Below, piece after piece: positions 2,946 through 57,650 of a stretch of 64,000 nucleotides of DNA; the first letter of the stretch is position 1, and every line of letters starts with the position of its first letter. The stretch lies in contig JAUWIX010000002.1 in the NCBI GenBank assembly GCA_030608005.1, positions 817 to 64,816 of the forward strand. Reading direction: 5' to 3'. A program made the translations under genes and the position numbers. This stretch comes from Dehalococcoidia bacterium (GTDB lineage: Bacteria > Chloroflexota > Dehalococcoidia > Dehalococcoidales > BS750m-G39). The notes below the pieces were generated by a model. It was not told the DNA's origin and did not search any database. It saw only the letters and a list, made by a program, of their open reading frames with translations.

Positions 2946-3052
2946 TTTGATAACCCTTCTCCTTTCAAATTTATTATCATTTTGGGGCTTAACAGGCTTG
3001 GTGTATTATATCATTATTGTTGCCGGGTTAACAACGCCGCCAGCTTGTTCCT

Positions 3053-3318
3053 GAGCTAGTTCAGATAGATAGGTGACACAGATTATCATGTTTCGTTTCT
3101 CTATAGCGTTGACCCTATCCCCCTGACCCCCTTCCCCTGGAGGGGAAGGGGGAAGTTGTTTTAAGAGGGGGCTTTGCCCCCTCTTTTTTATTCCTCCCCC
3201 TCCCTTTGTAAGGGAGGGGGAGGAAGCGGGTTCCCAGGAAAATCGAAGATTTTTCTGGTGCTTAAAGGGGGTGGGTTGCTAAGTAAATGTCCAAGGGGGT
3301 GAGATTAATAAACAATCT
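3053..3318 (+). mobile_element. MITE-like mosaic hairpin element (largest copy), flanked by a 12-bp direct repeat
   Basis: The T1 terminus gagctagttcagatagataggtgacacagattatcatgtttcgtttctc is followed by three GC hairpin modules and the T3 end taataaacaatct. The sequence cagcttgttcct occurs at both 3041-3052 and 3319-3330. Confidence 0.7.
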
Positions 3319-3348
3319 CAGCTTGTTCCTTGACACGGCTGGGTCAGG

Positions 3349-8821: not shown

Positions 8822-10807
8822 TTACTCGGTTTCTAGGGTGGCGAACCAGGCTAGGTCAGCGTTGTCGCCTGCCGTTGCCGAGGCTGTGGTGACATTACAG
8901 ATAACGGTGAAGTCGTTAGCTGTCACGCTCTTTATCCAAACAACATAGGCGATAGCACTGGGGTCATCGGGATTAGTTAGATTTGCTATTACCCTGGGCG
9001 TCTTCACGAACGGCACAGAGAATGTGACGGTGTGCTCCTTCAAGCCTGTGCTGTCGATAGGAACCAGGTTCTGGGCTAGACCGCTTTGTGAAATTTCAAG
9101 GATGGTGCCCGTTCCAGCATCCGCAATGCTCCCGGCCACGTTTCCGTAGCAGTAGTTTGCCGTTAATTTGTTAAGGTCGCAGTTGGCGGTGGCAATGTTT
9201 ATGCCATAGTTCTGCTTACCATCGGTGGCAAAGCAGTGATTGGAAGCGATGAGGTTAGAGTCACAATCATCATTTACACAAATGCCGTCATATGTGCCGA
9301 CTCCGGCTCCAGAGTTATTGAAGCAGGTGTTGCCACTGATGGTGTTGTTGTCGCAATCCTCAACTAAGTAGATGCCGTGCCAAGCATGCCCTCCAACGGT
9401 ATTGCTGCTGATGGTATTGTTATCGCACCGTTCATCCAGGTGAATGCCATTCCGACTACTGCCCAGACAGGTGTTGCTGTCAATGGTGTTGTTGCTGCTG
9501 CGATCCAAGAAGATAAGCTGGCAGGTGTTGCTATCAATGGTGTTCCCATTGCACGTGGCGAGCAAGTAGATACCCACAGAGGTGTTACCGCTGATGGTGT
9601 TGTTATCGGCACCGGACATTAGGTGGATGTGGCCGAGCTCGCCCTGAATGTTATTGCCGTTAATAGTATTGTAGTCAGAGTTACTGCCATGCAGGCATAT
9701 ACCACCGTTATAATTATCCTTGACGATGTTGCTAGTGATTGCGTTGTTGCTTCCTACCACATCGATGCCTTTGTCTCCGTTCATCCGACAGATGTTGCCA
9801 TTGACGGTGTTGTCATTGCTTGAGGACAAGTAGATGCCGTGAAAATCTTCGTTCTCCTGGCAGATGTTGCCGATGATAGAGTTGTTGTTTGAGGACCTCA
9901 CGTAGATGCCGGTGTAGTAATTCCTCTCACAGGTATTGCCTCTTATAGTATTGTGGCTAGAGGATTCCAACTGGATGCCGTAGAACCAGTCATTGTCCCG
10001 GCAGGTATTGTTGATGATAGCGTTATAATCGGAGGAGGAGAGGAGACAAATGCCGTTACTTTTTAGGTTCTCTACCTGGCAATTGACGATTTTGGAGTCT
10101 TCGACGCTGGTGAAGTAAATGCCATTCATGGTGACCCAAGACTGATTGGCTTTATTGCCGTCTATACAGAGGTCTCTTATCAATAGCTTGCTCTGGCCAG
10201 ATGCATAAATCATGTTGATGTTGACATTGTGGCTGTCCCTGATTTTGATTACCGTCGAAGCGCCAGCACCCACCAGGGCTACGTTCGACTTCGAGATGAT
10301 GATGTCGCCGGAAAGGACGTAGGTACCTTCCCTGAGGTAGATTGAGCCTCCAATGGATGGTAAGTCGTTTATCGCCGTATTGATCTCAACCTGGTCATCC
10401 GTTCCATCACAGACATAATCTGCATTCGTGTTGTCTATTGAATTGTATGCCGCCACGACGAAACTCGTAAACCCGTACCCGCGTGGTCCCTCTGGCCCTT
10501 GAGGCCCCTGTTCACCTTGAATTCCTTGTGGCCCCTCTGGTCCTTGAGGTCCCTGTGGCCCCCGAGCCCCTCGTGGCCCCCGCTCACCTTGTGGCCCCTC
10601 TGGCCCTGGTGGTCCTGGCTCGCCGGCTGGGCCCTGTGGACCCTGTGGCCCTGGTGGTCCTGGCTCGCCGGCTGGCCCTTGCAGTCCTTGTGCTCCCGGC
10701 GGTCCTTCTGGTGCCGGCGTTCCTTGTGGTCCAGCACAACTCACCGCTGGAACCAGAGCAAGAGCTACAAGTGCCAGGACGATGAAGACTCTACTTGGCG
10801 TTTTCAT
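8822..10807 (-). CDS. Secreted collagen-like (G-X-Y) repeat / right-handed parallel beta-helix / H-type-lectin-like protein
   Basis: It has a signal peptide ([26 protein letters not shown]) and about 28 G-X-Y triplets. About 15 PbH1-like repeats follow ([17 protein letters not shown]). The C-terminus [15 protein letters not shown]...[12 protein letters not shown]...AWFA resembles the H-type lectin fold. Confidence 0.8.
10601..10690. repeat. 45-bp tandem duplication inside the collagen-like region
   Basis: The sequence tggccctggtggtcctggctcgccggctgg occurs at 10601-10630 and again at 10646-10675. It encodes [15 protein letters not shown] twice. Confidence 0.85.
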
Positions 10808-21135: not shown

Positions 21136-21260
21136 GCCTCCTGGCAGTGGCATATTTTCCACAAAGGGTTGCCCCCTCAGTATCGTCTGCGCTGGGGCGT
21201 TTCACTTCCGTGTTCGGAATGGGAACGGGTGGTTCCACCCCGCTCTAACCACCAGAAGGC
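21136..21260 (-). rRNA. rrf: 5S ribosomal RNA (solitary)
   Basis: The reverse complement reads GCCUUCUGGUGGUUAGAGCGGGGUGGAACCACCCGUUCCCAUUCCGAACACGGAAGUGAAACGCCCCAGCGC...CCACUGCCAGGAGGC. This aligns along its length with bacterial 5S, and the ends pair as helix I. The ends are accurate to about 3 nt. Confidence 0.88.
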
Positions 21261-21267
21261 AGCCTCT

Positions 21268-21276
21268 ATTTTAGCA
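21268..21276 (-). promoter_or_regulatory. Extended -10 promoter (TGCTAAAAT) for the 5S rRNA
   Basis: The minus strand reads TGCTAAAAT, ending 7 nt upstream of the predicted 5S 5' end. Confidence 0.4.
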
Positions 21277-21301
21277 CATTTTGTGCAACAAAAAAAGGGG
21301 G

Positions 21302-21460
21302 TGTACTCGTTCATATGATTAGTGACACCTCAACTTTCTGCACCTCACCCCCTTAGTCCCCCTCTCCTTCTAGGAGAGGGGGAGGGGGACAGGGGGATGG
21401 GGTCAATGCTGCAGAGAAACGAAACATAATAATCTGTGTCACCTATCTATCTGAACTAGA
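21302..21460 (+). mobile_element. MITE-like mosaic element (T2 - hairpins - T1rc)
   Basis: It has the ends tgtactcgttcatatgattagtgacac... and ...gtgtcacctatctatctgaactag, which form imperfect terminal inverted repeats. It is an inverted copy of 27545-27676. The direct repeat aggggg flanks it (21296-21301 and 21464-21469). Confidence 0.7.
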
Positions 21461-21513
21461 GCAGGGGGGTAGAGAAGAATAGAGCACAATGCCACAGCTT
21501 GACGGCAAGGGGC

Positions 21514-27464: not shown

Positions 27465-27544
27465 CTTCTACCTGCAATCAATAAGCTTAATGCTAATCAA
27501 TTTGACCCGAAATATCAAGCTAGTCAGCGTTATTCAGAGCAGGT

Positions 27545-27676
27545 GAGCTAGTTCAGATAGATAGGTGACGCAGATTATCATGTTTCGTTTCTCCGCAGCA
27601 TTGACCCCCTTCCCCTAGAGGGGAAGGGGGTGAGGTGTAGAAAGTTGAGGTGTCACTAATCATATGAACGAGTACA
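27545..27676 (-). mobile_element. MITE-like mosaic element (inverted copy of 21302-21460)
   Basis: The T1 end gagctagttcagatagataggtgacgcagattatcatgtttcgtttctc is followed by one ccttcccctagaggggaaggg hairpin and the T2 end. The direct repeat gcaggt flanks it (27539-27544 and 27677-27682). Confidence 0.7.
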
Positions 27677-27718
27677 GCAGGTTACATCCAGAGCAAAAAA
27701 GTCTATAATAGCCATGTA

Positions 27719-28744
27719 ATGCCAGCAGGTAATATGACCATGCCCTTTGCCGACACGCCTGATATGAAGCAAGTAGAGGCGATTATCAATAGCTGGCAGA
27801 GACCTGCGCTGCCCATCCGCTGGAGATACCTCGGTGAGAGCAGTGTGGTGGAATTGGCTCACCTGGTGAGCCAAGGCTTAGCCGAGATACAGAGCGGTGG
27901 CTATAAGAGTCGGCTTGAAGTCAGTCTCACCGGCTGGCTCTACGATTTTATCCGAGCAAATGTAAAACGAGGCAGGGTTTTTGATTTGGGTCAGGTGCTA
28001 TTGCAGGGCAGTGCCGACTGCGTAGGTTATGCCAAGTTACTCACCCTGCTGGGTCGGCTATTTGGTCTTGATGTGGGCGTTATAGAGGTGGTGGTGGATA
28101 ACGCCGGCAGGTATGTGCCTCATACTGCTGTCCTGGTCAGGCTGGAGAACCGTCGCTGGCGCTTTATTGATTTGTGGTATGGGTCAAAGAATATCCGGCA
28201 TCTAAGGGTGGGATTGTGGGTGAGGTGGGGTGGAGCGTGGTGGATTGAAGACTTAGACCTGAAGGAGCTGGGCGGTGGGGAAGGGGTATGCTACCTGCCT
28301 GACCCTTGCGTGGATGCCATAACCCTCTATATTCGGGGGAATCGACATCTGGACAGGCAGGAGTATGCTGCTGCTATCGACTGCTATTCCGAGGCGATAC
28401 GCCTTTATCCCGGCAATGCCAGGTTGTTCTATAATAGAGCCATCGCCTATGAAAATTTGGGCGAATATGAGAAGGCAAAGGCTGACTATGCCCGCGCCTT
28501 TTCTGATGATGCTGCCCTAATACGCATTTTAGCCACTGAGCACGATGAGGTTATTTCTTTGCTTGACCTGGATGCCAGGGGGATTAGTAGCTCGGCTCAG
28601 GGAATATACTTGCTTTACCATGGGTTTGCCACCGGTAGGAAGGTTCCGCTACCGAGGGTAGCTAGGAGACTTGGCTTGTCTGAGGCAGAGACCGAGGCTA
28701 TCCTGTCCTCGGTGGAGGCTAAGTTAGCCATTGGTTCAGATTAA
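27719..28744 (+). CDS. Transglutaminase-like cysteine-protease-fold protein with C-terminal TPR repeats
   Basis: GSADCVGYAKLL...PHTAVLV...FIDLWYG suggests a Cys-His-Asp core. TPR repeats follow (AAAIDCYSEAIRLYPGNARLFYNRAIAYENLGEYEKAKADY). Confidence 0.55.
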   Translation: MPAGNMTMPFADTPDMKQVEAIINSWQRPALPIRWRYLGESSVVELAHLVSQGLAEIQSGGYKSRLEVSLTGWLYDFIRANVKRGRVFDLGQVLLQGSADCVGYAKLLTLLGRLFGLDVGVIEVVVDNAGRYVPHTAVLVRLENRRWRFIDLWYGSKNIRHLRVGLWVRWGGAWWIEDLDLKELGGGEGVCYLPDPCVDAITLYIRGNRHLDRQEYAAAIDCYSEAIRLYPGNARLFYNRAIAYENLGEYEKAKADYARAFSDDAALIRILATEHDEVISLLDLDARGISSSAQGIYLLYHGFATGRKVPLPRVARRLGLSEAETEAILSSVEAKLAIGSD

Positions 28745-57265: not shown

Positions 57266-57325
57266 GGCAAAATTATAGCATGCCTATATCTGGGTCACAA
57301 CTTAGCGCACTCTTTCAGTACCTCA

Positions 57326-57590
57326 GTGGCACCTCAACTTTCTGCATCTCACCTCCTTCATTTACTTAGCAACCCTCCCCCTTTGTCCCCCTCCCTTAGG
57401 TAAAGGAGGGGGAATTAGTTGTGTAAGAGAGGCGAAGCCTCTCTTTGACTCTCTATTCTCTGTGGTGTTTAAGAGGGGCGCTAGCCCCTCTTAACAAAAT
57501 CTTCCCCCTTCCCCTCCAGGGGAAGGGGGTCAGGGGATGGGGTCAATGCCTGCAGAGAAACGAAACATAATAATCTGCGCCACTAATCTA
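57326..57590 (+). mobile_element. Degenerate MITE-like mosaic element (T2-like end, five hairpin modules, T1-like end)
   Basis: One end, gtggcacctcaactttctgcatctcacctcc, is T2-like. The hairpins include ccctcccttaggtaaaggaggg, aagagaggcgaagcctctctt, aagaggggcgctagcccctctt and ccttcccctccaggggaaggg. The other end, ggtcaatgcctgcagagaaacgaaacataataatctg, is T1-like in reverse complement. Confidence 0.7.
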
Positions 57591-57650
57591 TAACAGTCAC
57601 AACTTACCTCTAGCCATATGGCAAAAAAACTGGTATAGTGTTTGGTAAAC

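Follow-up and report, generated by a model that had tools for sequence, protein, structure and literature searches.

The short non-coding repeat that lies in two inverted copies at 21302-21463 and 27544-27676 of the window is, with high probability, a MITE with IS481-like ends, promoter-targeted insertion, and copies that were diversified by deletions of hairpin modules. The window is the whole 64,000 nt stretch of DNA that was analysed, positions 817-64816 of contig C13 of the studied Dehalococcoidales MAG (G000; 1.12 Mb, 38 contigs, 86.8% complete). Transposons that choose a harmless landmark are rare in bacteria; the one this element family seems to have settled on, the upstream edge of a sigma-70-type promoter, is the most generic of all. 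A preliminary description of the window did not recognize the repeat family; a parent can now be assigned, because an IS481-like insertion sequence (IS) carries the same TIRs. Also missed in that first reading, besides the parent IS, were the 5-bp length of the target-site duplication and the promoter -35 box that always abuts one end.

The window copies and their family

A repeat search returned two inverted pairs in the window, 21391-21459 versus 27548-27616 at 93% and 21302-21354 versus 27624-27676 at 98%, which bears out the preliminary description of two inverted copies of one element. Element 1 takes up 21302-21463 (162 bp) and copy 2 takes up 27544-27676 (133 bp). Element 1 had been ended at 21460; the family consensus end, ...CTGAACTAG(CT/AG)CA, places the end at 21463. 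The 6-bp repeats thought to flank the copies are really 5-bp duplications, GGGGG and GCAGG, and the sixth matching flank base of copy 2 is the T that starts both the element and the -35 box.

Read on the plus strand, element 1 is preceded by the left duplication GGGGG (21297-21301), the same GGGGG that stands upstream of the 5S promoter in element-free relatives, and begins with a 27-nt IRR-type TIR, TGTACTCGTTCATATGATTAGTGACAC (21302-21328), identical to the IRR of resident IS fragments (G000 C3 and C20:100-126). Next come the inner part of a conserved end module, CTCAACTTTCTGCACCTCACCCCCTTAGT (21329-21357), kept in about 20 copies, then GC hairpin module A, CCCCCTCTCC-TTCTA-GGAGAGGGGG (21358-21382), and a G-rich tail with the inner part of the other end module, ..GGGGTCAATGCTGCAGAGAAACGAAACATAATAATCT (21383-21435), kept in about 35 copies. 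The 28-nt IRL-type TIR lies on the minus strand (21436-21463; reverse complement TGCTCTAGTTCAGATAGATAGGTGACAC), has the same sequence as the IRL of an IS remnant (G000 C38:131-158), and is followed by the right GGGGG (21464-21468). Copy 2 runs the other way: GCAGG (27539-27543), IRL-type TIR (27544-27571, plus strand), GC hairpin module C, CCCCCTTCCCC-TAGA-GGGGAAGGGGG, as its sole hairpin (27605-27630, plus), IRR-type TIR (27650-27676, minus) and GCAGG again (27677-27681). Both window copies fold into a single long hairpin (z = -6.5 and -4.5). There is no ORF of at least 60 aa inside 21302-21463, and a 72-aa mechanical ORF at 27656-27874 (minus) has its last 21 nt within the IRR of copy 2.

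A promoter-like TTCAGA-18-TAT(T/C)AT (9/12) lies partly within the IRL-type end of both copies (21426-21455, minus; 27552-27581, plus) and points inward, to the IRR-type end and the host promoter. Elsewhere in the window, 10485-10727 carries GGnCCn repeats of 9-nt period on the plus strand, whose opposite strand would read as collagen-like Gly-X-Y.

BLAST and mismatch scans of the whole MAG found 25 IRR-type ends of the form TGTACTCGTTCA-N5-TTAGTGACAC and 39 IRL-type ends of the form TGAGCTAGTTCAGATAGATNGGTGACAC, which make up 14 complete copies (133-386 bp) and one degenerate copy, with many partial copies that lack one TIR. Paired ends keep a constant relative orientation at a separation of 133-386 bp. 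The two TIRs have TG...CA tips and are consistent over about 64 ends; the 27-nt sequence given above and its 28-nt partner, TGAGCTAGTTCAGATAGATAGGTGACAC, are identical at 20/27 positions with one gap, so that the imperfect TIRs of the preliminary description stand and their length of about 25 bp does not. From the tip to GTGACAC the IRL has one base more than the IRR, in Dehalococcoidia and Acidobacteriota alike.

Complete copies share one layout. Behind the 27-nt end lies a conserved inner module that closes with ACCTCACCCCC; then come one to six GC hairpins, and a further conserved module, GGGGTCAATGC..GAGAAACGAAACAT.ATAATCT, leads to the 28-nt end. The copies vary in the number of GC-hairpin modules. 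The ACCTCACCCCC of the IRR-side inner module is common to the head of solitary hairpin repeats, and the GC-hairpin module occurs on its own in 33/41 related genomes, so that the interior of the MITE is made of a repeat belonging to the lineage itself. A 225-bp three-hairpin form is present as four copies at four loci, 92-97% identical end to end and with duplications of their own; near-identity over the full length indicates that the composite moves as a unit. The window copies had been described as differing by an indel of one hairpin. We read each instead as a separate deletion derivative of the 225-bp form, and copies probably came to differ when short C/G-run repeats in the hairpin modules gave rise to deletions between them: the deletions of the 162-bp and 133-bp copies fall between CCCCCTT, GGGGGA and GGGGTCA repeats, which would explain the apparent 'gain and loss' of modules. 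When the 225-bp form (G000 C8:14833-15057 and three others) is read from its IRL towards its IRR, the middle hairpin is a canonical intrinsic terminator, GAGGGGGC-TTCG-GCCCCCTC followed by TTTTTTATT, predicted to halt read-through just ahead of the abutted host promoter; the two window copies are without this module.

Target-site duplication was evaluated over the 14 complete copies of G000, where 49/70 positions of the 5-bp flanks match versus about 17 expected (five perfect duplications, four of 4/5, one of 3/5, and four of only 1-2/5). None of 20,000 permutations reached the observed value (p < 5e-5), and the signal was gone when the register was shifted by one base or more. Among 42 elements of other genomes 142/210 duplication positions match, 15 of the duplications being perfect. 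The preliminary description had put forward a MITE-like mobile element bounded by TIRs and target duplications, to be taken for a structural REP-like repeat if copies genome-wide lacked consistent ends and flanking duplications; both are present, and the proposal is supported.

Two further members lie in the window. The degenerate third copy had been given as 57326-57590; it is real, and its span is 57306-57595 (plus), with an IRR-type end, CGCACTCTTTCAGTACCTCAGTGGCAC, 5 nt from TTGTGA-17-TATAAT, and with the IRL-type tip lost. An 11-bp direct repeat, GTCACAACTTA (57294-57304 and 57596-57606), flanks it and includes the -35 box. A fourth, partial member at 3052-3318 (plus) has an intact IRL-type end, three hairpins and no IRR-type end; on either side of it stands an 11-12-bp direct repeat, CAGCTTGTTCC[T], which adjoins TTGACA-17-TAAACT (window 3041-3330). 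A second IRL-only element, on contig C3 (minus strand, IRL tip at plus-strand 14132), has the repeat AAATAATCTCTA and then TTGAAC. The flanking repeats of these three one-tipped elements, at 11-12 bp, are longer than the 5-bp duplication of the family.

The parent insertion sequence

Scanning one genome per species with the 27-nt end gave more than 115 matches, in Dehalococcoidia, Acidobacteriota (Terriglobia, Acidiferrales), Desulfobacterota, Gemmatimonadota, Latescibacterota, Anaerolineae and one Eubacteriales MAG; among the public-genome DNA matches listed, most were from Dehalococcoidia MAGs, with Acidobacteriota as the other large group. At 45/80 usable sites the sequence inside the 27-nt end encodes, when read on the reverse strand, a protein C-terminus (..GYLTPxEF..), and the stop codon falls within the repeat. 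Intact IS copies, found in other Dehalococcoidia, Acidobacteriota and further phyla, measure 1.05-1.15 kb and hold a single ORF of 334-346 aa. Their other end is the 28-nt end of the MITE, after which comes the transposase promoter (locus L076 of a Dehalococcoidia genome is an example), and this order of ends makes the left end of element 1 the IRR and its right end the IRL.

The transposase scores 195.8 and 193.0 bits against NF033577 (IS481), below the NCBIfam cut-off of 224; we therefore call it 'IS481-like'. NF033577 is still the best family, against 88-94 bits for IS3, and the matches to HTH_28, HTH_32 and rve_3 pass their cut-offs. IS remnants in G000 have an IRR and an IRL that agree with the MITE ends in every base. 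The ends of the MITE thus probably derive from an IS481-like parent, and homology between MITE and IS is confined to about 30 bp per end, so that descent by internal deletion of the IS is no more than a candidate origin. An IS3-family element of a related genome (G007, locus L012) was tried as parent and rejected; its TIRs, TGGACTGCACCCC..., are of similar style and differ from the MITE ends.

G000 itself holds only broken pieces of the parent IS. In one remnant (C38:1-158) the IRL and the promoter are followed by 27 codons that join directly to about residue 175, an internal deletion having removed the HTH region; another (C10:19871-20275) covers residues 173-309. The same 126 nt stands at C3:1-126 and C20:1-126, encoding residues 311-342 with an in-frame TGA, which sits in the conserved RPHQ motif, and then the IRR. 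In C24:5772-6241 the IRL, the promoter TTGAAA-16-TACAAT and about 40 N-terminal codons are fused to an unrelated ORF of roughly 100 aa; the fusion may be a chimeric or domesticated gene. Contig breaks fall inside the IS, and the body of the IS is absent from the bin.

No intact parent transposase was found in G000 (86.8% complete) or in the other 29 genomes of the family; MAGs commonly drop such repeats in assembly or binning. Nor was a transposase found beside solitary TIR copies in G000, which proved to be IS remnants, and the match to the 126-nt IS end of C3 and C20 in 30 family genomes was limited to its TIR part. A search of G000 and 40 relatives for rve (PF00665) found nothing in G000; the rve score of the lineage (26 bits) is under the cut-off, and the IS body is unassembled in the bin.

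MITE-sized derivatives of about 170-600 bp, with the same ends and other interiors, occur in Acidobacteriota/Terriglobia and other Dehalococcoidia (L113, L141, L180 and other loci), which suggests that non-autonomous forms arose repeatedly in this IS lineage. The smallest candidate, in a Chloroflexota MAG (JADFVG010000129.1; L097:226-280), is a 55-bp element with little beyond an IRR-type end abutting an IRL-type end. It stands 5 nt from TTGGCA-17-TAGAAT, is without a matching 5-bp duplication, and may be a minimal MITE.

Insertion at promoters

Outward from the IRR-type tip, the 25 flanks of G000 give the logo N4-c-TTGAC-N17-TAtAAT; this logo recurs, sharper, at 20 IRR-type ends of four related genera, and the 39 IRL-type flanks give no logo signal. 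A two-hexamer test, allowing at most two mismatches per hexamer and a spacer of 16-18, finds a promoter in register at 15/25 G000 sites versus 0-2 in ten shifted registers, and at 47/80 independent sites of other genomes, from many phyla, versus 0-3 in shifted registers. An outward ORF of at least 70 aa starts within 400 nt of the IRR-type end at 22/25 sites of G000. Among 28 sites that have no TTG in the -35 slot, 24 keep a -10-like hexamer in register (1-7 in shifted registers), and TAnnnT is in register at 22 (0-4 when shifted). Genomic comparison thus shows insertion targeted to promoters in a fixed register and orientation, as far as very strong selection, which genomics does not fully separate from targeting, can be set aside.

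Both window copies adjoin promoters in this way. The 5S rRNA gene (21139-21256, minus) is served by a promoter at 21268-21296 (minus) with a -10 TAAAAT (21273-21268), a TGc extension and a non-consensus -35 slot (21296-21291), 5 nt from the element tip at 21302. This 5S gene stands alone, with its own extended -10 promoter and no 23S upstream, an arrangement kept in about 17 relatives. For copy 2, the promoter of the gene at 27719, TTACAT-16-TATAAT (27682-27709, plus), follows directly on the 5-bp duplication and scored 10/12 one base leftward.

Reciprocal empty sites were found in G009, which belongs to a related genus; this comparison, like the others available, is between genera only, and the sites have diverged. 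There, the orthologue of the 27465-27718 intergenic region holds an independent 210-bp relative, 5 nt from the other, divergent promoter, and the promoter used in G000 stands free. Empty sites rebuilt for the two genomes by removing the element and one copy of the duplication align at 116/147 positions. G009 also has an insertion of its own 5 nt from its 5S promoter.

We considered three other accounts of these data. In one of them the outward promoter is part of the element, which would be a mobile promoter cassette; a -35/-10 pair does lie beside nearly every IRR-type end. Three observations mark the promoters as host DNA and leave this reading scarcely credible: the duplication separates the tip from the -35 box, the spacers and flanks are unrelated among copies, and the same promoters stand at element-free orthologous loci, the 5S promoter and its GGGGG being kept in 17 relatives without the element and the promoter of gene 27719 in G009, where no element adjoins it. 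A second account is random or weakly biased insertion, with promoter adjacency produced by selection in a compact genome, or by the use of the AT-rich end as an UP element. In a small gene-dense genome few intergenic sites are far from a promoter, and promoters often face the IRL-type flank too, at variable distances. Such a process would hardly be expected to yield a base-exact register and a fixed orientation in each of three sets (15/25 in G000, the roughly 20 sites of relatives, 47/80 across phyla) with 0-3 sites in shifted registers and the other end without signal; moreover, neutral spots, the gaps between convergent genes, are unused by IRR-bearing copies. We regard it as quite improbable.

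The remaining account, a REP/BIME- or BOX-like structural repeat spread by a RAYT-type enzyme or by recombination and acting as a hairpin (terminator or mRNA stabiliser), is very unlikely in view of TIRs identical to those of an IS, 5-bp duplications flush with TG...CA tips, and whole composites copied as units to new loci. No Y1/RAYT gene (PF01797, Y1 transposase) was matched in the MAG, which is 86.8% complete. What speaks for a structural repeat is the interior, a mosaic of GC-rich palindromes that are also solitary in most relatives, together with the canonical terminator-like hairpin of some copies and the many partial copies without one TIR. The mosaic of hairpin modules that the preliminary description likened to BIME or BOX is real but secondary, and the duplication, the IS-type ends and the lack of a RAYT match argue against REP/BIME membership. 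An Rfam search gave no match at the gathering score, the sub-threshold matches being generic hairpin matches to eukaryotic miRNA precursor models only.

For the preferred reading, a promoter-targeted MITE, we propose the following mechanism from the sequence comparisons. The non-autonomous element has the 27-nt IRR and the 28-nt IRL of an IS481-like IS on either side of non-coding filler, made of two conserved end modules and one to six of the lineage's GC-hairpin units. The roughly 340-aa DDE transposase of the parent IS (HTH_28/HTH_32 and an rve core) would move it in trans, cutting at the TG...CA tips and inserting with a 5-bp staggered cut. As the flanks show, insertion leaves the IRR-type end exactly 5 bp ahead of the -35 hexamer of an outward-directed sigma-70-type promoter; the core promoter is kept intact, and the element takes the place of the sequence upstream of about -40.

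The MITE gives a constraint on targeting that autonomous copies cannot. It shares about 30 bp per end with the IS and yet keeps register and orientation, which would place the targeting information in the transposase and the two unlike TIRs; two unlike ends would then be all that targeting needs in cis. The -10 element kept in register at sites without TTG suggests in turn that the promoter is read as a unit and not as TTGACA alone, through its sequence and spacing or as bound RNA polymerase, although selection for working promoters could contribute. Compared by eye, the IR does not mimic its target, since the positions of the tip TGTACT and the sub-terminal GTGACA do not correspond to those of TTGACA. 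We offer only tentatively the fuller proposal that the transposase recognizes a functional promoter (sigma or the RNA polymerase holoenzyme bound at -35/-10, for example, or else the -10 together with its spacing) and that its sole need in cis is the two 27/28-nt ends. If this were true, the MITE would be a natural minimal substrate proving the ends sufficient, and possibly a tool for insertion just upstream of promoters.

Promoter-edge targeting would account for the survival of about 60 ends, some even beside the 5S promoter, in a genome of 1.1 Mb whose intergenic regions are very short. Each insertion puts the same sequence upstream of about -40, and could thereby erase or standardise regulatory sites at roughly twenty genes of G000.

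Comparison with known systems

In the literature searched, which included work on Dehalococcoidia MITEs and on promoter-targeting IS elements, we found no account of oriented insertion 5 bp upstream of -35 boxes by an IS or a MITE. The element resembles the IS481 family (IS481 and IS1002 of Bordetella, ISKpn28 of Klebsiella) in its TGT...ACA-type tips, TIRs of about 27-28 bp and short fixed duplication, and the parent IS resembles that family in having one ORF, for a DDE transposase that joins N-terminal HTH domains to an rve core. The window element differs in being non-coding, 133-386 bp long, and common to the IS at its ends alone. ISKpn28 has a 5-bp repeat and mostly intergenic sites, and the passages searched of the 2026 paper that describes it hold no promoter rule (PMC13733257).

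The window element also has the features of small non-coding MITEs. Correia/NEMIS of Neisseria, RUP of S. pneumoniae and MITEAba12 of Acinetobacter are multi-copy, have TIRs and a fixed duplication, fold into one long hairpin, and are presumed to be moved in trans by the transposase of a related IS. The window element differs from these in that it inserts in a fixed orientation at a functional landmark (a promoter's upstream edge) and not at a short sequence such as TA, and in that its interior is a variable array of the host lineage's hairpin repeats. BOX of S. pneumoniae and the BIMEs of enterobacteria are alike in architecture only, with two unlike end modules, variable internal hairpins and intergenic positions; they are not known to have IS-derived TIRs or a target duplication.

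Oriented insertion at a fixed distance that spares genes is known from Tn7 at attTn7, from IS1202 elements of the ISAba32/ISAjo2 type at XerCD sites, and from Ty3 at Pol III starts, and the analogy with these is functional only. The window element differs from them in that the landmark is a generic sigma-70-type promoter, which would offer hundreds of sites per genome, and in that the 1.1-kb IS, with its single gene, shows no evident accessory targeting protein. Should the transposase indeed recognize functional promoters, the family would be a bacterial counterpart of the Pol III-directed integration of Ty3.
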